Assembly: GCA_963813245.1 (NCBI GenBank)
Contig: CAWEYE010000005.1
Span: 114,588 to 178,587 of the forward strand
DNA length: 64,000 nt
Source: an uncultured Actinomycetes bacterium
Lineage (GTDB): Bacteria; Actinomycetota; Thermoleophilia; Gaiellales; JAICJC01
Reading direction: 5' to 3'
The notes beneath the pieces were generated by a model, which made no database searches, was not told the DNA's origin, and saw only the letters and a program-made list of their open reading frames with translations. Numbering within the stretch: the stretch's first letter is position 1; each line of letters begins with the position of its first letter. Positions 7,932-40,828 of the stretch are shown in pieces. The position numbers and the translations under genes are program-made.

Positions 7932-9653
7932 TTAGGCAGCCTGGCGCTGGTCGCCGGAGAGGAGCCCGTTGAAGAGCATCGTCGGCAGCGGCTTGCTGTA
8001 GAGGTAGCCCTGGCCGATCTCGCAGCCGAGGTCGCGCAGGAAGGTCAGCTGCGCCTCGGTCTCGATGCCCTCGGCGAGGCACTGGATGCCGAGCTTCGCG
8101 GCCATCGTGATCATGGTCTCGACGAGCACCCCGGCGTCGCGGTCGTCGGGCAGGTCCTTCACGAACGAGCGGTCGATCTTGATCATGCTCGGCCGCAGGC
8201 GCCGCAGCCGCCCGAGCGAGGAGTAGCCGGTGCCGAAGTCGTCGATTGCCAGGCGCAGGCCCTGGGAGTGGATCTCGTTCAGCATCGGATCGAGATCCGT
8301 GATGTCGGTCATCGCGGCCTGCTCGGTGAGCTCGATCATGATCCGGTCGGGGGTGAGCCCGAACGATTCGACCGTCGCGATCACGCGGCGGATGGCGGAC
8401 GCCTGCCAGTACGCCGGCGGCAGGTTGACCGAGGCGTACAGGTCGAGGTCGCGGTCGCACCAGCGCCGCGCCTCGATGCAGGCTCGCTCGAGCACCCATG
8501 CCGTCATCGGGCGGATCAGGCCCGTGCGCTCGGCGGCCGGCAGGAACGCGCCGGGCAGGAGCAGGCCGGCCTCGGGATGGTTCCACCGGATCAGCGCCTC
8601 GGCACCCACGATGCACGACTGCGTGAGGTCTACGATCGGCTGGTAGTACAGCTCGAGCTCGTCCCGCCGCTCCGCCAGCCGCAGCTGAGATGCGATCGCG
8701 AGCTCCCTGCTCGAGTCGCGCTTCGGCGGCTGGTACAGGCGGTAGCCGTCGCGGCCGCCGTCCTTGGCCGCGTACATGGCGATGTCGGCGTGCTTGAGCA
8801 GCGTCTCGGCGGTGTCGCCGTCGGCCGGAAAGAGGCTGGCGCCGATGCTCGGGGTGACGTAGAGGTCGGTGTTCGCGACCGCGAACGGCTTTGCGAGCGC
8901 CGCCCGCAGGTTCGCGGCCACGGTCTGCGCGGCCGTCTCGGGGGACGCCTCGGCGGCCGCTCCCTGCACGAGCACCAGGAACTCGTCGCCGCCCTGGCGG
9001 GCGACCACGTCACCGGCCCGGCACGACTCGCGCAGCCGCTTTGCGACCATCACGAGCAGTTCGTCGCCGACGGCGTGACCGAAGCTGTCGTTCACCAGCT
9101 TGAAGTCGTCGAGGTCGATGAACAGCACCGCGCCGCCCGAGTGCGAGCGCGCGGCGTTGGCGATCGCGACGGTGAGGTGCTCCTGGAAGAGCGCCCGGTT
9201 GGGCAGGTCGGTGAGCGGGTCGTGCAGCGCCAGGTGGGCGAGCCGCTCCTCGCCCGACCGGCGCTCGGTCACGTCGAAGAGGACGCCGTCGACATGCAGC
9301 ACGACGCCGTCGAGCCCGTAGACGCCCTGACCGTGGCCCTGCACCCAGCGCGTGCTCCCGTCGGCGTGGACCAGGCGATACTCGATCGCGTACGCCTCGC
9401 GGCGGTCGAGCGCGCCGCGGAAGAGCGCCGTCACCGCATCGAGGTCGTCGGGGTGGATGATGCTCGAGTAGGGGCGGCCGGCCTCGCCCAGGAGGGCGGA
9501 GGGCGGATAGCCGGTGATGGACTCGATCGACGGCGCGACGGCGCGCATGATCCAGCGCTCGTCCAGGCGCTCGTGCCGGTACGGCGTCCCCGGCAGCACC
9601 GAGACCTGCGCACCGGAGCGTCCACTCCAGGGTATGCCCGCGCGACTTTGCAT
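7932..9653 (-). CDS. PAS-GGDEF-EAL c-di-GMP signalling protein
   Basis: PAS (SIESITGYPPSALLG...IEYRLVHADGSTRWV), GGDEF (RQGGDEFLVL) and EAL (EALIRW...DDFGTGYSSL...KIDRSF...EGIE) domains. Start taken at ATG 9653 (GGGGGGA upstream). Confidence 0.9.
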   Translation of the reverse strand: MQSRAGIPWSGRSGAQVSVLPGTPYRHERLDERWIMRAVAPSIESITGYPPSALLGEAGRPYSSIIHPDDLDAVTALFRGALDRREAYAIEYRLVHADGSTRWVQGHGQGVYGLDGVVLHVDGVLFDVTERRSGEERLAHLALHDPLTDLPNRALFQEHLTVAIANAARSHSGGAVLFIDLDDFKLVNDSFGHAVGDELLVMVAKRLRESCRAGDVVARQGGDEFLVLVQGAAAEASPETAAQTVAANLRAALAKPFAVANTDLYVTPSIGASLFPADGDTAETLLKHADIAMYAAKDGGRDGYRLYQPPKRDSSRELAIASQLRLAERRDELELYYQPIVDLTQSCIVGAEALIRWNHPEAGLLLPGAFLPAAERTGLIRPMTAWVLERACIEARRWCDRDLDLYASVNLPPAYWQASAIRRVIATVESFGLTPDRIMIELTEQAAMTDITDLDPMLNEIHSQGLRLAIDDFGTGYSSLGRLRRLRPSMIKIDRSFVKDLPDDRDAGVLVETMITMAAKLGIQCLAEGIETEAQLTFLRDLGCEIGQGYLYSKPLPTMLFNGLLSGDQRQAA

Positions 9654-9772
9654 ATCCCCCCGGGTAGTCGGGTCATTTTGGCAACAGTTGATCACCTGAT
9701 CGAGGGACGGGTGCGTACAGCAGCCGGCGACGGGGCACCGTGCCGCAGCTACCGCAGGCTGGGGAGGGACGG

Positions 9773-9788
9773 ATGCCGCATGCGGCAT
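9773..9788. repeat. 16-bp perfect palindrome ATGCCGCATGCGGCAT upstream of the membrane GGDEF-EAL gene
   Basis: Read directly from the sequence. It lies in the divergent intergenic region between two c-di-GMP genes. Its function is unknown (operator or 5' hairpin). Confidence 0.5.
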
Positions 9789-9882
9789 GTACTGCCGGCC
9801 CGGTGCGCCGACCGTAAGGGGGGTGGTGCAGTCACCCCCTCATTCCGCCGTGCACACGATCCCGGGCATCGTGCGGTTCGGC

Positions 9883-12060
9883 ATGGCGGCGATGGTCGCG
9901 GCGGTCGCAGGCCAGGCGCTGCTGGCGACCCTCGGCCTCGACACAGGCGCCGACATCGCCGGTGGCCTGGTCGTGCCCCTGCTGGCGGCTCTGATCGTCG
10001 CCGAGCGGGTGCGGCGGACACATTCCGAGCGCACCGCCTGGTCCGCGGTCGTCGTGGCCCTCGGTCTTCTGATCGCCGGCAACGTCTACTGCGTGCTTGC
10101 GTTCGCCGATCCCGCGAACCCGCCCGTGCCCTCGCCGGCCGATATCGCCTACCTGTCCGAGTACCCGCTGATGTTCATGGCGCTCGGGCTGCTCGTGCGT
10201 GACCGGGCCGTCGGCTTCCGGCCCAGCCTCTGGATCGACGGCGTCGTGGCGACGCTCAGCGTCGCCGGAGTGTGGACAGCGCTCGATCCGCCGCACGTCG
10301 CCCACGCCGGGTCGATGCTGGAGGCGCTCACCCTGCACGCCTACGTCGTCGGCGACGTCGTCCTCGCCGCCGCCGCCGTCGGCACCTTCGCCCTGTTCTC
10401 GTGGCGGCCGGGGCCGGCCTGGCTCGTGATCGCGGGCGGCCTGGTGGCGCAGTCGGCCGCCGATCTGCTCACCACCATGTCCTCGAGCGGGCACAGCGCC
10501 GCAGTGCTGCAGCTGATCGGTGTGCTGTGGAGCGTGGCCGTGGCAACGTTCATCATCGCGGCCTGGCTGCCGACCACCAAGCGCCCCCACCACACGATCG
10601 CCGGCTGGCGGGCGCAGGCGCCGACGGTCGCCTTCTCGACCGTCGCGCTGGGCACGCTCGTGGCCGGCGTCGCCGGAGACGTGCCGGTGCTCGCCCGCAC
10701 CCTTGCGACCGCCGCCGTCGCCGCCGCGATGCTGCGGCTCCTGTGGACGGCAAACGAGAACGTCGGCCTCGAGTTCGCCCGCAGGCTCGCGGTCACCGAC
10801 GATCTGACCGGCCTCGGCAACCGCCGCCAGCTGTGGACCTCGATCCGGGCGGCCTGCGCGCGCCGGGAGCGGTTCGCGTTGCTCATGATCGACCTGGACG
10901 GCTTCAAGGAGGTGAACGACGCGCTCGGCCACAATGCGGGCGACCTCCTGCTGCAGGGGATGGCCGACCGGTTCTCGCGCCTGGTCCGGCCCGACGACGT
11001 GCTCACCCGCCTGGGCGGCGACGAGTTCGGCGTGCTCGTGCGGGCCTGCGACGAGGCCGCCGCGGTGGCCTTCGCCGACCGGGTCGGCGAGGTGCTCGAG
11101 ACCGGCTTCGAGGTGCACGGCATCACGGTCCGCGTCGCGGCCAGCGCCGGCATCGTGATCGCCACCGGCGACGACACCGCGCCGGAGCTCCTGCGCCGGG
11201 CCGACGTCGCGATGTACGAGGCCAAGCGCAATCGCAGCCGCCGCGAGGTGTACGACCCCGAGACCGACCAGCGCTCACCCGCCCGTCTGGGGATGATGGA
11301 CCAGCTGCGCCGGGCGATCGAGTCGCGCACGCTCGCCGTGCACTACCAGCCGAAGGCGCATCTGCGCTCGGGCGAGGTGTACGGGCTCGAGGCGCTCGTC
11401 CGCTGGCGCATGCCCGATGGCGAGCTGCTGATGCCGGCGGAGTTCCTGCCCCTGGCCGACAACGCCGGGCTCATGTACGAGCTGACGCTGTGCGTCCTCG
11501 AGCGCGCCCTCGCCGACGTGGCCCGCCTGCGCGTGCGCCGGCCGCAGCTGACGGTCGCGGTGAACGTGCCGCCGGTGGCGATCCTCGACGCCAACCTGGC
11601 GCTCGACATCGCCCGCCTGCTGGCCGCCGCCGGCCTGCCCGGCCGGGCTCTCGAGATCGAGATCACCGAGGAGAGCCTCATGGCCGACCGCCTGCGCGCC
11701 CGGTCGCTGATCGCCGGCCTGCGCGAGCTCGGGGTGGCCATCTCGATCGACGACTACGGCACGGGCTACTCGTCGCTCCCGTACCTGCGCGACCTCGAGG
11801 TCGACTCGCTCAAGCTCGACCGCTCGTTCGTGACCGGCCTCGCCCACAGCGGCAAGGCGGGCACCATCGTCGCCTCCACGATCAAGCTCGCCCACGCGCT
11901 CGGCCTGTGGGTGGTGGCCGAAGGGGTCGAGTCGAGCGACGACTGGCTCGCGCTCGACGCGCTCGACTGCGACGCCGTCCAGGGCTTCCTGCTCTCACGC
12001 CCCGTCCCGATCGAGGTCATCGCCGGGTCGCTCGGGTCCGCCGACGCGCAGGCCGCGTGA
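9883..12060 (+). CDS. Membrane-anchored GGDEF-EAL c-di-GMP signalling protein
   Basis: About 9 predicted hydrophobic helices, then GGDEF (RLGGDEFGVL) and EAL (EALVRW...DDYGTGYSSL...KLDRSF...EGVE). Start taken at ATG 9883 (MAAMVAAVAG). Confidence 0.9.
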   Translation: MAAMVAAVAGQALLATLGLDTGADIAGGLVVPLLAALIVAERVRRTHSERTAWSAVVVALGLLIAGNVYCVLAFADPANPPVPSPADIAYLSEYPLMFMALGLLVRDRAVGFRPSLWIDGVVATLSVAGVWTALDPPHVAHAGSMLEALTLHAYVVGDVVLAAAAVGTFALFSWRPGPAWLVIAGGLVAQSAADLLTTMSSSGHSAAVLQLIGVLWSVAVATFIIAAWLPTTKRPHHTIAGWRAQAPTVAFSTVALGTLVAGVAGDVPVLARTLATAAVAAAMLRLLWTANENVGLEFARRLAVTDDLTGLGNRRQLWTSIRAACARRERFALLMIDLDGFKEVNDALGHNAGDLLLQGMADRFSRLVRPDDVLTRLGGDEFGVLVRACDEAAAVAFADRVGEVLETGFEVHGITVRVAASAGIVIATGDDTAPELLRRADVAMYEAKRNRSRREVYDPETDQRSPARLGMMDQLRRAIESRTLAVHYQPKAHLRSGEVYGLEALVRWRMPDGELLMPAEFLPLADNAGLMYELTLCVLERALADVARLRVRRPQLTVAVNVPPVAILDANLALDIARLLAAAGLPGRALEIEITEESLMADRLRARSLIAGLRELGVAISIDDYGTGYSSLPYLRDLEVDSLKLDRSFVTGLAHSGKAGTIVASTIKLAHALGLWVVAEGVESSDDWLALDALDCDAVQGFLLSRPVPIEVIAGSLGSADAQAA

Positions 12061-12879: not shown

Positions 12880-14205
12880 GTGGCGCAGGTCCAGATTGAT
12901 GAGCTGGTGGAGCAGGCGCGGTCGCGACAGGTGCGACCGCTGACGCCGCGCGAGCGCATCACGGGGACGGCCATGGCGGTGGCCTTTCTGGCCGTCGCTG
13001 TGCCTCTGGCGGTCACGAGCGGCGCCGGCCTCTCCGACCTGCCGGCCCTCGCCCTGTGCATCGCCGTCTACGCCGCCGCCTCGGTGGTCGAGTTCGAGGT
13101 CGGCACGGGGTCGGCGGTCCCGACCCAGCTCGTCCTCGTGCCGATGCTGTTTGCGCTCCCGCTCGGGATCGTCCCGCTGGCCGCCGCCGCCGGCTACGTC
13201 GTCGGGGACGTCGCGCGCGCGGCCTTCCGGGGCGGCCATCGCCCGCGCCCGGTCCTGCTCGTCGGATCGTCCGCCTACGCGATCGGCCCGGTGGTGGTGC
13301 TGCTTGCCTTCGGCGGCGGCGAGCCCGCCTGGGATCGGTGGCCGGTCTACGTCGCGGCGTTCGCCGCGCAGTTCGGCTTCGACGCGGCCAGCACGATCAT
13401 CGGCGATGTCTGCGCGCTCGGGGTGCGGCCGTCCCTGTCGCTGCGCACGATCGGCTGGGTGTACGGCATCGATGCGCTGCTGGCGCCGGTCGGGCTCGCG
13501 TTCGCGCTGGCTCTCGGCGACGCCGCCGGCGTTCTCCTGGCGGTGCCGCTGCTGATCGTGATGGCGCTCTTCGCGCGCGACCGGCGCGCCCGCACCGATG
13601 CGCTGATCGACCTCGGCCGCACCTATCGCGGCACCGCGCTCGTGCTGGGAGACGTGATCGAGGCCGACGATACCTACACCGGCACGCACAGCCGCAACGT
13701 GCTCGAGCTCAGCCTGGCGGTCGCCGACGCGCTGCGGCTGGACGGAGCGGCCCGCCGGGAGGTCGAGTTCACATCGCTCCTGCACGACATCGGCAAGCTG
13801 CGCATCCCCAACGCGATCATCCAGAAGCCCGGCCCGCTGACGCCCGCCGAACGGGCGCTGATCGAGACGCACACGCTCGAGGGTGAGCGCATCCTGGGGC
13901 AGATCGGCGGCTTCCTGAGCCACATCGGCCGGATGGTGCGCTCGTGTCACGAGCGCTGGGACGGGGGCGGCTATCCGGACGGCCTGACCGGCGAGCGGAT
14001 CCCGGTCGCCGCCCGCATCGTGTCGTGCTGCGACGCGTTCGACGCCATGACGAGCGACCGGCCCTACCGGCGGGCGCGATCGACGCAGTTCGCGCTGGGA
14101 GAGCTCGCGGCCGGAGCCGGGTCGCAGTTCGACCCCGCCGTGGTGGCGGCTGTGGCGGCGATCGTCGCCGGCGGCGCCGGCGCGACCGCCCGCAAGGCCG
14201 CCTGA
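12880..14205 (+). CDS. Membrane HD-GYP domain protein (c-di-GMP phosphodiesterase type)
   Basis: Multi-TM N-terminus, then THSRNV...LLHDIGKL...CHERWDGGGYPDGL (canonical HD and GYP motifs). AGGGAG precedes the GTG start. Confidence 0.9.
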   Translation: MAQVQIDELVEQARSRQVRPLTPRERITGTAMAVAFLAVAVPLAVTSGAGLSDLPALALCIAVYAAASVVEFEVGTGSAVPTQLVLVPMLFALPLGIVPLAAAAGYVVGDVARAAFRGGHRPRPVLLVGSSAYAIGPVVVLLAFGGGEPAWDRWPVYVAAFAAQFGFDAASTIIGDVCALGVRPSLSLRTIGWVYGIDALLAPVGLAFALALGDAAGVLLAVPLLIVMALFARDRRARTDALIDLGRTYRGTALVLGDVIEADDTYTGTHSRNVLELSLAVADALRLDGAARREVEFTSLLHDIGKLRIPNAIIQKPGPLTPAERALIETHTLEGERILGQIGGFLSHIGRMVRSCHERWDGGGYPDGLTGERIPVAARIVSCCDAFDAMTSDRPYRRARSTQFALGELAAGAGSQFDPAVVAAVAAIVAGGAGATARKAA

Positions 14206-37416: not shown

Positions 37417-39428
37417 ATGGATCGTCCCGGAAGCACGCCAACGCCGAAGCGCCGTCTCAGCGACGGGTACGTGCCGCTGCACGCGCTGCCAGCGGCCGCC
37501 CCGGCCCCACTGCGCGAGCAGCTCGGAGCCGCGCTCGTCGACCGCGGTCTGCTGAGTGCGGACCAGCTCGAGTGGGCCCTCGACGCCCATCGGCGCACCG
37601 GTGAGCGGCTCGGCCGGGTGCTGCTCGCGGCCGGCCTCGTCCGCCGCCAGACGCTCTACTCGGTGCTGGCGGAGCTGTGGGGCTGCGGCTTCGTCGACCT
37701 CGTGCACACGCCCCCCGACGCGGCCGTGGCCGGGCTGTTCGACCCCGAGCAGATGGCGCTCGAGGGCTGGATCCCGCTCGAGCTGCGCGGTGGTGTGCTG
37801 CACGTCGCCACCTCGGAGCCGCCCTCGCCTGACCTGCGCCGGCGCATCCTTCACGCGTGCCCACCCCGCGACGCGAACGACATCGTCGCGATCACCTTCG
37901 CCGCCACCACGGACTGGGATGTGCTGGCCGCGATCCGGGCCCGGTTCGCGCACGAGCTCCGGCACGAGGCGGCGTACGGGCTCTCGGAGCGGGATCCGGC
38001 TCGATCGGCGCGGGGAGGCCTCAGCCGCGGGCAGCGGGTCGTGCTCGGCCTGGCCCTCGCCGGTCTGGTCGCGGCCGGCATCTTCGACCCCGGCGCGCTC
38101 CTGATCGGCGCGATCGTCGTCCTGCAGACAACCTTCGTCGCGGGGGTGCTGTTCAAGCTGGTCGCGTCGCTGGCCGGCATCCGCAGCACGCGCCGGCGCG
38201 GCCGGCGGGCTCCGGCGCAGCGCATCCCCGACCACGAGCTGCCGGTCTACACGGTGCTCGTGCCCGTCTACCACGAGGCCAATATCGTCGGCGGGCTGAT
38301 CGAGCACCTGCGCCGGCTCGACTATCCCGCCGGAGAAGCTCGAGATCCTGCTGCTCATGGAGGAGGACGACACCGAGACCATCGCGGCCGCGCGGGCGGC
38401 CGACCGCCCGGACACCGTGCGCTTCATCGTCGTCCCCGACGGCGCAGCCGAAGACCAAGCCGCGCGCCTGCAACGTCGGCCTGTTCTTCGCCCGCGGCGA
38501 GTACCTCGTGATCTACGACGCCGAGGACCGCCCCGAGCCCGGCCAGCTGCGCGAGGCCGTGGCGGCCTTCCGGGCCGGCGCCGACGACCTCGTGTGCGTG
38601 CAGGCGCGCCTCAACTACTTCAACGCCCGCCGAGAACGTGCTCACCCGGATGTTCACGCTCGAGTACTCGTACTGGTTCGACTACATGCTGCCCGGGCCT
38701 CGACCGGCTGTCGCTGCCGATCCCGCTCGGCGGCACCTCCAACCACTTCCGCGCCGACCGGCTGCGCGAGCTCGGCGGGTGGGACCCGTTCAACGTGACC
38801 GAGGACGCCGACCTCGGCCTGCGCGCCGGCGGCGAAGGGCTACACGGTCGGCATCATCGACTCGACGACCTACGAGGAGGCCTGCTCGCAGATCGGCGCC
38901 GTGGATCCGCCAGCGCACCCGCTGGATCAAGGGCTACATGCAGACCGCGCTCGTGCACTCGCGCCGGCCCGTGAAGTTCACCCGCGAGGCCGGGCTGCGC
39001 GGCCTGGCCGGCTTCCTGCTCCTGATCGCGGGCACGCCCGCCACGTTCCTGGCGACGCCCATCCTGTGGCTGCTCACCGCCGTGTGGATCTCCGGCGCCG
39101 CCTCGGGCGGCGGCCGTGTCACACCTCTTCCCGCATCCGTTCGACACGCTCGCCGAGCTCAGCCTCGTCGTCGGCAACCTGAGCATGATCGGCCTGAACG
39201 CGCTCGCCGTCCTGCGGCGGCGGATGTTCCATCTGCTGCCGTTCGCGCTGCTCGCCCCGCTCTACTGGGTGCTGCACTCGATCGCCGCCTGGCGAGCGCT
39301 CGAGCAGCTCATCCGGCGGCCCGTTCATGTGGGAGAAGACGCCGCACGGCCTGCAGGGCTCGCAGCCGGCCCCGGCGGCCGTGGACACGATCGAGACGGA
39401 GGCGCCGCCCCTGAGGGCAGCCGCCTAA
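37417..39428 (+). pseudogene. MshEN (GspE-N type c-di-GMP receptor) domain fused to TM segments and a GT2 family glycosyltransferase; catalytic half carries eight apparent +1 insertions
   Basis: The N-terminal 305 aa are intact (frame 1). The GT2 half is then read through frames 2,0,1,2,0,1,2,0: LDYPA|EKLEILLLMEEDDTE...VVPDG|QPKTKPRACNVGLFFARGEYLVIYDAEDRPE...NYFNAR|ENVLTRMFTLEYSYWFDYMLPG|LDRLSLPIPLGGTSNHFR...EDADLGLRA|AAKGYTVGIIDSTTYEEACSQIGA|WIRQRTRWIKGYMQT...|VSHLFPHPFD...LIRRP|FMWEKTPHGLQ... Confidence 0.8.
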
Positions 39429-40828
39429 GCCGCCAGCGCCAGCGTGGCGACGTGGGCATTGAGCGCCGCGAACGGCTCGGCGAAGAAGGCGGTGCCGACG
39501 TCGCCGCGCATCAGGTCGAGCGCGGCCGGCGACGGCATGGGATCGCGGTAGGGCCGCCGCGCGGTGAGCGCGTCGTAGACGTCGGCGCAGGCGAGCACAC
39601 GGCTGATCGCGGGGATCGCCTCGCCGGCCAGGCCGCGGTGGTAGCCGCGCCCGTCGACCCGCTCGTGGTGGGCGCCCGCGGCCTCGGCGAGGCCCGAGAA
39701 GATCGGCACGTGGCGCAGGATCGCCTCGGTGTCGCGCGGATGGCGCTTCACGGCCGCGTACTCGGCGTCGGTCAGCTTCCCGGGCTTGTCCAGGATCGAG
39801 TTGGAGACGCCGAGCTTGCCGATGTCGTGCAGGAGCCCCGCGCGGCGCAGGTCGCGCAGCTCGCCCTCGCCCCAGCCGAGCGCGCGGCCGATGCCGACGG
39901 CGTAGGCCGAGACCCGGTCGGAGTGGCTGGCGGTGAAGGGGCTCTTGGCGTCGATCATCGAGGCGAAGGCCTTGGCGATCCGGTCGACGCGGGCATCGTC
40001 CGCGGCCACGAGGCCGCCGTCGGCGGGCGCGGCGGCGAAGCGCTCGCCGGCGAGGTCGGCGAAGAGCCGGTCGGAGTCGGGCAGCGCGAGGAACGCGTCG
40101 GCGACCTGCGGGTCAAACCAGCGGCCGCGGCGCACGCGCACCATCTCCCGGGCGGTCTCGACGCCGTCCTGGGCGATGAAGACGTCGGCCGTCTGCGCCA
40201 GGCAGGCGATGCGGGCGAGCAGCGGGATGCCATTGCCGCGCAGCTTGTAGGGCTGGCCGCGCCCGTCCCAGTGCTCGTCGAGGTATCTGACGGTGTCGGC
40301 GGCGGCGGCGGGGAACTCGAGCATCGTGACGATGCGGGCGCCGCGATCGCAGCGCGTCTCGACCGCCAGGTTGCCCTCGCGGGCCATGTCGCGCAGGGCG
40401 GTCAGCACCCGCCGGGCGCGCGCGAGGCTCGAGTCGTTGCGGCCGGCCTCGCGCACGACCATGCCGATCGCCGCACTCGGCCTGGCCCAGTCGATGCGCT
40501 TCGCGATCCGCTTCAGCTCGAGGTCGTCGGCGGCGAAGATCTCGGCCATCCGCGCGGCCGACGAGGAGCAACCGGCGTCCTTGAGCAGCATGGCGTAATA
40601 GAGGCTTGTGTGCTCCTCGGCGGTGAGCGTGAGCGCGTCGGCCAGGCGCAGCGCGATCAGGCAGCTGCGCTTGGCGTGCCCCGGGGGCTGGCCCTCGGTC
40701 AGGTCGAGGGCGTGCGAGAGCGCCGCGACGACCTCGCCCACGGCGAAGGTCTGCGGCGCCGGCTCGGGCGCGGAGCGGAGGTGGGCGGTCATCTCGACGG
40801 TTATCGGCCCCCGCCGGCGCCCGTACAC
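39425..40828 (-). CDS. Cytoplasmic tandem HD-GYP protein: degenerate first domain + near-canonical second domain
   Basis: Domain 1: GHAKRS...LLKDAGC...DEHWDGRGQPYKL (HD->KD, GYP->GQP). Domain 2: SHSDRVS...LLHDIGKLGV...HHERVDGRGYHRGL. The start could instead be ATG 40792. Confidence 0.85.
   Translation of the reverse strand: MYGRRRGPITVEMTAHLRSAPEPAPQTFAVGEVVAALSHALDLTEGQPPGHAKRSCLIALRLADALTLTAEEHTSLYYAMLLKDAGCSSSAARMAEIFAADDLELKRIAKRIDWARPSAAIGMVVREAGRNDSSLARARRVLTALRDMAREGNLAVETRCDRGARIVTMLEFPAAAADTVRYLDEHWDGRGQPYKLRGNGIPLLARIACLAQTADVFIAQDGVETAREMVRVRRGRWFDPQVADAFLALPDSDRLFADLAGERFAAAPADGGLVAADDARVDRIAKAFASMIDAKSPFTASHSDRVSAYAVGIGRALGWGEGELRDLRRAGLLHDIGKLGVSNSILDKPGKLTDAEYAAVKRHPRDTEAILRHVPIFSGLAEAAGAHHERVDGRGYHRGLAGEAIPAISRVLACADVYDALTARRPYRDPMPSPAALDLMRGDVGTAFFAEPFAALNAHVATLALAA

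Follow-up and report, generated by a model that had tools for sequence, protein, structure and literature searches.

The subject of this work is a gene for a predicted polysaccharide synthase in the genome of an uncultured Actinomycetes bacterium (Thermoleophilia, Gaiellales; GenBank assembly GCA_963813245.1, contig CAWEYE010000005.1, positions 114,588 to 178,587 of the forward strand). We refer to this whole stretch of 64,000 nucleotides as the window, and all coordinates are those of the window. The synthase gene starts at position 37417 on the plus strand, and residue numbers are counted from there. Its predicted product combines an N-terminal MshEN domain, which is of a type known for binding of cyclic diguanosine monophosphate (c-di-GMP), with a glycosyltransferase of family 2 (GT2), and the open reading frame (ORF) is interrupted by single-base insertions in the catalytic half. 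The features of the gene and of its convergent neighbour are as follows.

37417..39428, plus strand: whole gene of the MshEN-GT2 synthase, made up of 667 codons, a stop codon and the 8 extra bases, from the repaired ORF and synteny with the intact orthologue at locus L001
37417..38511, plus strand: ORF as found in the window, 364 amino acids, genuine up to about residue 304 and followed by an out-of-frame tail
37519..37590, plus strand: MshEN motif 1, residues 35-58, QLGAALVDRGLLSADQLEWALDAH, aligning with MshE residues 9-32
37591..37605, plus strand: inter-motif spacer RRTGE, 5 residues, with R60, T61 and G62 mostly kept across the family
37606..37677, plus strand: MshEN motif 2, residues 64-87, RLGRVLLAAGLVRRQTLYSVLAEL, aligning with MshE residues 38-61
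37678..37959, plus strand: predicted MshEN_C alpha/beta subdomain, residues 88-181, from Pfam PF05157, an AlphaFold2 (AF2) model with a predicted local distance difference test score (pLDDT) of about 96, and a Foldseek match to 5HTL
38029..38181, plus strand: predicted transmembrane hairpin joining MshEN to GT2, residues 205-255, two helices, from hydropathy and AF2 (helices 204-223 and 225-262)
38254..38925, plus strand: GT2 catalytic core, spread over all three frames in the window, with Pfam GT2 families matching separate pieces
38254-38277, plus strand: GT2 motif VLVPVYHE, within the catalytic core
38514-38528, plus strand: GT2 motif YDAED (DxD), within the catalytic core
38798-38815, plus strand: GT2 motif TEDADL, within the catalytic core
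38911-38925, plus strand: GT2 motif QRTRW (QxxRW), within the catalytic core
38995..39289, plus strand: four predicted C-terminal transmembrane helices, residues 525-622 of the repaired protein, from hydropathy and AF2 (helices 516-561, 572-597 and 601-630)
39330..39347, plus strand: WEKTPH motif after the last transmembrane helix, invariant in the family alignment and aligning with WDKTTH of NfrB (BLASTP)
39425..40828, minus strand: convergent HD-GYP-type gene with two HD_5 domains (Pfam HD_5, E 8e-48, in two stretches), syntenic in L001, L083 and L085

A preliminary description of the window had placed two tandem 24-residue MshEN motifs at residues 35-58 and 64-87, separated by the spacer RRTGE (37519-37677), and translation showed these coordinates to be exact. 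Both copies satisfy the consensus RLGxx(L/V/I)(L/V/I)xxG(L/V/I)(L/V/I)xxxxLxxxLxxQ at all Leu, Gly and hydrophobic positions, as seen by direct reading and with a regular expression, and the only departures are those already described, from Arg to Gln at position 1 and from Gln to His or Leu at position 24. Three of the four polar end positions are affected in this way, namely Q35 (Arg expected), H58 and L87 (Gln expected in both cases), and R64 alone fits. Across all six translated frames of the 64 kb, the hydrophobic/Gly skeleton is confined to these two sites, and none of 30 codon-block shuffles produced it; the motif match is beyond chance. In a phmmer comparison, residues 32-151 aligned without gaps to residues 6-125 of Vibrio cholerae MshE (PDB 5HTL; E 5.7e-10), in a register that pairs Q35 with Arg9, H58 with Gln32, R64 with Arg38 and L87 with Gln61, and the GSPII domains of Thermus thermophilus PilF were matched with E 7e-25. 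The same description had suggested that an MshEN profile should recognise the region, and two models did so above their cut-offs. NCBIfam NF053729.1 ('c-di-GMP_motif, MshE-related'), whose 53 positions cover exactly the tandem-motif unit, scored 55.5 bits (cut-off 38) with its positions 1-52 aligned to residues 35-86, and Pfam MshEN (PF05157) matched residues 88-181 at 35 bits (cut-off 23.1; E 1.4e-8).

The AF2 model of residues 1-204 (pLDDT 87) contains helices at 32-42, 48-61, 65-71 and 77-88 and, after these, an alpha/beta part, and its top match in the PDB, as found with Foldseek, was MshE with c-di-GMP (5HTL_B; TM-score 0.81, root-mean-square deviation 2.8 Å), the next one being the c-di-GMP-bound GSPII-B domain of PilF. 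AF2, Foldseek and Pfam all point to a four-helix bundle with an MshEN_C subdomain that resembles the N1 domain of T2SSE. On the basis of the profiles and the model, residues 35-87 are assigned to MshEN_N, the predicted c-di-GMP-type four-helix bundle of an MshEN domain.

The remainder of the protein was assessed on the repaired ORF and on intact relatives. Removal of the eight insertions yields a clean ORF of 667 amino acids in which the catalytic signatures DxD (YDAED), TED and QxxRW are present; all three are invariant in the family. A database search with the frame-stitched protein gave at least 7,888 significant matches among 8,000 candidates scored, the best of which are 653-667 amino acids long and carry Pfam MshEN plus GT2 families. 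The phyla represented include Actinomycetota, Chloroflexota, Gemmatimonadota, Cyanobacteria and Aquificota, and JGI calls some of the members 'glycosyltransferase XagB' or 'cellulose synthase/PGA synthase-like'. The closest intact orthologues, P0165 and P0170, share 96% identity with the repaired window protein. Another intact orthologue, P0001 (94% identity to the repaired protein, 93% to the first stitched query), is identical to the window protein over residues 35-87, i.e. over both motifs and the spacer, and matches Pfam GT2 families; the locus carrying it, L001, was used as syntenic reference for the window. The AF2 model of P0001 (pLDDT 90, predicted TM-score (pTM) 0.90) comprises the MshEN domain, a two-helix transmembrane hairpin, a GT-A domain and four more transmembrane helices, with the GT-A domain packed on the bundle formed by the 2 + 4 hydrophobic helices. 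For the GT2-transmembrane part of this model, Foldseek retrieved BcsA, hyaluronan synthases and chitin synthase (E 1e-12 to 2.6e-14). Based on the P0001 model, these fold matches and the DxD/TED/QxxRW signatures, the gene product is predicted to be a membrane-embedded processive GT2 polysaccharide synthase with a cytoplasmic N-terminal MshEN domain, as the modelled hairpin would put the MshEN and GT2 domains both on the cytoplasmic side.

P0001 carries a compensated -2/-1 frameshift of its own at L001 2390-2436 (window 39075-39124), where one transmembrane helix reads RRVDLRRRLGRGRVT. L001 stands alone in this, as the window, L082, L085 and L086 have one common reading at the site.

In the window itself, the reading frame runs 0>1>2>0>1>2>0>1>2 after about residue 304. 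This is the result of eight +1 single-base insertions between 38329 and 39323, all of them G or C, which are absent from L001, L085 (a JGI contig), L086 and L082. Alignment to these relatives placed the insertions as follows.

38329, plus strand: frameshift 1, extra G, absent from L001, L085, L086 and L082
38444, plus strand: frameshift 2, extra G
38632, plus strand: frameshift 3, extra G
38692, plus strand: frameshift 4, extra C, shared by L083
38824, plus strand: frameshift 5, extra C
38895, plus strand: frameshift 6, extra G
39111, plus strand: frameshift 7, extra C
39323, plus strand: frameshift 8, extra C or G, at a site where relatives vary (C or G)

The loss of frame in the GT2 part interrupts the coding sequence, and the motif-bearing ORF stops after 364 codons, at 38511. 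The fusion through transmembrane segments to a cellulose-synthase-like GT2, which the preliminary description had proposed, holds for the gene and its orthologues and fails as a single frame in the window because of the eight insertions. Window and syntenic intact L001 gene are 97% identical at the nucleotide level. Neither substitution density nor synonymous divergence (dS) is raised in the frameshifted kilobase, where the ratio of non-synonymous to synonymous divergence (dN/dS) is 0.43 versus 0.28 in the N-terminal part, and there are no deletions and no stop-creating substitutions in this region. Single frameshifts also split Pfam profiles elsewhere in the window, in genes for an Iso_dh enzyme (~43520, minus strand), a DAO/FAO_M/GCV_T oxidase (~19850, minus strand) and a beta-lactamase-family protein (~21985, plus strand), and a solute-binding protein gene (~46130, minus strand) and a MalK-type ABC ATPase gene (~47930, plus strand) are probably split as well. 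A frame plot of the GC content at third codon positions and a scan for ORF signals were noisy, and only frameshifts with split Pfam profiles were kept. The split genes suggest that the assembly contains residual indel errors.

The sister contigs, which we take to be long-read assemblies solely from their 'contig_N' names in consecutive ENA analyses, bear indels of their own, in different genes: in L086 the synthase gene is intact and its neighbours are split, and in L082 and L083 both the synthase gene and its neighbours are split. L083 is about 98% identical to the window outside 38270-39290 and about 80% identical, with many indels, inside (L083 5560-6560), and for this catalytic-kilobase segment the choice is between a mosaic allele and a chimeric consensus. 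In the sensor half, identity to the window is about 98% for L083, which is also frameshifted in MshEN_C, and about 90% for L082. Several of the insertions in the window lie at allele-variable sites and look like merges of both variants. A scan of the metagenome with a degenerate pattern across the insertion site at 38632 gave 0 matches; the same pattern matches L001 and L082 locally. From the comparison with the relatives, the repaired ORF, the unraised dS and the other split genes, we conclude that the insertions are probably consensus errors of a long-read metagenome assembly. In our reading they would be concentrated in the catalytic core because its conservation lets reads from further strains or species map there. 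Since the insertions are most likely assembly errors, the organism probably has an intact gene.

If the eight insertions were true mutations instead, the gene would be a real, recently inactivated pseudogene. The cell would then make no polysaccharide from the locus and at most a 304-residue fragment, MshEN plus transmembrane hairpin, that ends in a nonsense tail. We consider this unlikely, though it deserves attention. The insertions form a strong cluster in one gene, with 8 in 1 kb versus about 1 frameshift per 10 kb elsewhere, and outside the gene the surrounding 6.6 kb show no more than two indels relative to L001, a single base between genes and six bases in frame. This cluster is not readily explained by assembly errors and would fit a real inactivation. 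Moreover, L082 and L083 are also broken in the synthase gene, at other positions, and L082 has lost the adjoining HD-GYP gene, which hints that the locus is dispensable. On the other side, the eight insertions come without deletions, stop-creating substitutions or raised substitution density or dS, whereas neutral decay with 8 indels would in general be expected to bring many more substitutions. Ordinary metabolic and transport genes in the window are frameshifted too, the scattered indels of the sister assemblies are typical of long-read consensus error, and intact copies at 96% identity are common. An old pseudogene was rejected on the grounds that substitution density and dS are not raised, and programmed frameshifting on the grounds of eight shifts in one direction and in unrelated contexts, with close relatives intact. 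For users of the assembly, this means that the synthase and several other genes are broken by single-base indels, and that pseudogene calls need caution.

The eight frameshifts of the window, together with the different indels of L082 and the ~80% mosaic over the same 1 kb in L083, could also be taken as signs that the catalytic half is a real strain-level hot spot in a natural population, with, as a separate matter, Leu24 and Trp88 representing a variant binding mode. We regard this idea as very doubtful. If the hot spot were true, a synthase of surface glycan would have been inactivated or replaced time and again. Phage pressure could be among the causes, given that phage N4 uses the NfrB glycan as its receptor.

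Returning to the gene as repaired, we think it probable that the locus encodes an MshEN domain on a processive GT2 synthase that is, by analogy, gated by c-di-GMP, the frame breaks in the catalytic half being assembly errors. A c-di-GMP-gated synthase would be the best reading of the gene because of the MshEN profiles, the fold match to MshE, the conserved Leu and Gly residues and the architecture of the orthologue. A number of observations weigh against it. The relaxed screening pattern of Wang et al., [RKPN]h G...[QNKRYWST], has no match in the window, both motifs failing it because of positions 1 and 24, and the motifs also fall outside a polar-end rule under which position 1 should be Arg, K, L, P or N and position 24 Gln or some other polar residue. 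In PilF, affinity drops about 80-fold with the Q190E exchange, and the double exchange Q190E/Q218E no longer binds (PMC11731258), and here both position-24 residues are His (H58) and Leu (L87), compared to Gln in PilF. By analogy with PilF, where Gln24-to-Glu exchanges lower or abolish binding, the deviations Q35, H58 and L87 should not be taken as neutral by default. Foldseek also retrieves non-binding relatives, namely PilF GSPII-A, XpsE and Xanthomonas citri PilB. In a survey of 80 family loci (L002-L081), a gene for a c-di-GMP enzyme lies within 10 kb of the synthase in only 16, and the neighbourhood was therefore dropped as an argument for c-di-GMP gating. Finally, no binding experiment on the subfamily with N-terminal MshEN was found in the literature searched.

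The conservation of the binding site was assessed in an alignment of 76 homologues with 49-83% identity (alignment A1). In both motifs, L2, G3, L6, G10, L17 and L21 are 90-100% conserved. Position 1 of motif 1 is Arg in 45, Pro in 15 and Gln in 3 of the 76 sequences, and position 24 of the same motif is Gln in 49 and His in 27. In motif 2, position 24 is Leu in 49 homologues and Gln in 7, so that L87 follows the norm of the family and is no local defect. There is no exception to Trp88 or Leu84 in the alignment, and 74 of the 76 sequences have Arg77. The Leu at position 24 of motif 2 may, together with Trp88, Leu84 and Arg77, reflect a subfamily-specific binding mode. Published work indicates how much deviation such domains tolerate. 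Mutants of MshE in Arg9, Asp12 and Gln32 changed the affinity less than 5-fold, the Gly and Leu residues being critical (PMC5013675), PilF GSPII-B, whose position-1 residues are Lys and Leu with no Arg, exceeds MshEN 83-fold in binding strength (PMC11731258), and Escherichia coli NfrB binds c-di-GMP despite motif deviations (PMC8669469). The NfrB motifs have P1 and Q10, R24 in motif 1, and a 4-residue spacer. Since the Leu and Gly residues are conserved, L87 is the family norm and MshE, PilF and NfrB tolerate deviations, binding of c-di-GMP by the domain is likely, as judged from conservation and analogy.

Two other views of the domain have to be weighed against this evidence. According to the first, it is a degenerate, non-binding MshEN domain like those of XpsE and PilF GSPII-A, which serves as a structural or interaction module, and the synthase is not gated by c-di-GMP. 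The preponderance of Leu over Gln at position 24 of motif 2 (49 versus 7 of 76) fits this view, as do the polar contacts that both Gln24 residues make in MshE and PilF and the retrieval of non-binders by the fold search; in PilF GSPII-A, binding is abolished by small deviations plus other structural features (PMC12002112). The loss in XpsE, however, took eight changes including key Gly and Leu residues, none of which is changed here, the ligand-contacting Leu and Gly residues are strongly conserved across phyla, the curated hidden Markov model of the c-di-GMP motif scores well above its cut-off, and NfrB binds with more deviations. We judge a non-binding domain clearly unlikely. According to the second view, the ligand is a different nucleotide, such as a linear breakdown product or a cyclic dinucleotide other than c-di-GMP, with Leu87, Trp88 and Arg77 shifting the specificity. 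It is supported only by residue 24 of motif 2, where the family as a whole departs from the consensus, together with the invariant Trp88 and the near-invariant Arg77, whereas all guanine-sandwiching residues of MshE are retained, the adjacent gene codes for a c-di-GMP-type phosphodiesterase, and no MshEN domain with another ligand was found in the literature searched. A switch of ligand is, in our estimate, highly improbable.

The idea of an MshEN-GT2 synthase is not new, as the architecture was listed in 2016 and NfrB provides an experimental precedent. Supplementary Table 4 of Wang et al. contains both 'Glyco_trans_2_3 - MshEN' (NfrB) and 'MshEN - Glyco_trans_2_3', the latter with Rhodobacter sphaeroides Rsph17029_0522 as example and with an occurrence in Actinobacteria, Firmicutes and Proteobacteria; no experimental work is cited for it in that table, and the main text states that the domain is fused to glycosyltransferases (PMC5013675). 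The window synthase has the same domain order and Pfam families as the second of these architectures, with no difference in kind. Compared to the MshEN domain of MshE (PDB 5HTL) and GSPII-B of PilF (PDB 8PDK), the window domain has the same 53-residue tandem unit, 5-residue spacer and alpha/beta subdomain, its predicted fold matches theirs with TM-scores of 0.76-0.81, and every Leu/Gly contact position is retained. In contrast to these two proteins, in which the domain sits on a secretion or pilus ATPase, it is part of a glycosyltransferase here, deviates at three of the four polar ends (Q, H and L), and shares with its family the invariant Trp88 and near-invariant Arg77.

NfrB is a c-di-GMP-activated GT2 exopolysaccharide synthase of E. 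coli (PMC8669469, PMC8669472), and mutations in its MshEN domain that impair binding abolish function (PMC8669469). The two proteins resemble each other in that a processive GT2 with transmembrane helices and an MshEN domain are combined in a single polypeptide. Their MshEN parts align in a comparison of the NfrB model with the window protein (E 4e-8), the GT2-transmembrane cores are distantly homologous (20% identity over 426 amino acids, E 8e-4, including W(E/D)KTxH), and the expected logic, by which c-di-GMP binding would switch polymer synthesis on, is analogous. Unlike the window synthase with its N-terminal MshEN domain, however, NfrB has the GT2 part at the N-terminus and MshEN at the C-terminus. 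The window protein scores 32 bits against a cut-off of 1170 with the NfrB equivalog NF008411, and with the MshEN part only, and homologues of the NfrB partners NfrA, the outer-membrane pore, and YbcH do not occur in the window, where tblastn with the E. coli proteins gave no match. Because of the reversed domain order, the low score and the lack of these partners, the sequence comparison places the window synthase outside the NfrB family. From their sequences, NfrB and the window family look like permuted arrangements of one GT2-transmembrane core. In E. coli nfrB (L084), the WDKTTH motif sits just upstream of the MshEN domain.

BcsA and the hyaluronan synthases are the closest solved folds for the GT2-transmembrane part and have the DxD/TED/QxxRW chemistry in common with it. 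BcsA is also activated by c-di-GMP, yet through a PilZ domain, whereas the predicted receptor of the window synthase is MshEN, located at the opposite end of the protein. No PilZ domain was matched by Pfam, and the CelA/BcsA equivalog TIGR03030 gave 50.8 bits against a cut-off of 699, which places the protein outside the BcsA family as well. Modelled on NfrB and BcsA, the mechanism could be as follows. In the four-helix bundle, the two 24-residue motifs would hold one molecule of c-di-GMP between them, chiefly through the conserved Leu and Gly residues, and its binding would alter the packing of MshEN against the catalytic domain. The MshEN domain would be tethered to the first transmembrane helix by a long helix, and its packing is predicted to be fixed (pTM 0.90). 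Binding may either relieve an inhibition of the GT2 domain or activate it directly, and the active GT2 would polymerise a beta-linked polysaccharide and export it through the transmembrane channel of the enzyme itself. The convergent HD-GYP phosphodiesterase may lower the local c-di-GMP signal.

With regard to annotation, the MshEN-GT2 fusion is already caught by the standard Pfam and NCBIfam models, and our finding adds little to them. A single study of binding and activity would annotate thousands of genes, since the subfamily with N-terminal MshEN is very large and no experimental study of it was found in the literature searched.

As to the surroundings of the gene, the preliminary description had seen the synthase surrounded by c-di-GMP turnover genes, and all of these exist, at the following positions in addition to the convergent HD-GYP gene listed above.

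7932..9788, minus strand: PAS-GGDEF-EAL gene, distant, 28 kb from the synthase
9787..12060, plus strand: GGDEF-EAL gene, distant context
12880..14205, plus strand: HD-GYP (HD_5) gene, distant, 23 kb from the synthase

Only the convergent HD-GYP gene adjoins the synthase, the others being 23-30 kb away, so that the claim of a surrounding cluster is weak. The tandem HD-GYP gene convergent at 39425 was found as described, with Pfam HD_5 matching in two stretches; the N-terminal copy is degenerate (KD for HD, GQP for GYP), and HD and GYH are seen in the C-terminal one. The stop codons of this gene and of the synthase gene overlap (CTAA), and the HD-GYP gene is deleted in L082. The proposal of a c-di-GMP-gated exopolysaccharide synthase, which was built on these elements, would still be the best reading and agrees in essence with the standard annotation of the family; three corrections to it concern the frame breaks, the weak neighbourhood and the non-trivial changes at Gln24. 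No RNA family, including the c-di-GMP riboswitch, was matched by Rfam at the gathering score on either strand of the 64 kb. Proteins encoded near the synthase group, at 90% identity or more, with proteins annotated as Gaiellales, which suggests an actinobacterial host, probably from the Thermoleophilia.

Among the 80 family loci surveyed, three other neighbours of the synthase recur, none of which is present in the window. These are a same-strand downstream polytopic membrane protein without Pfam match (55 of the 80 loci), an upstream BcsB-like protein (26 loci) and a small putative outer-membrane protein (16 loci).

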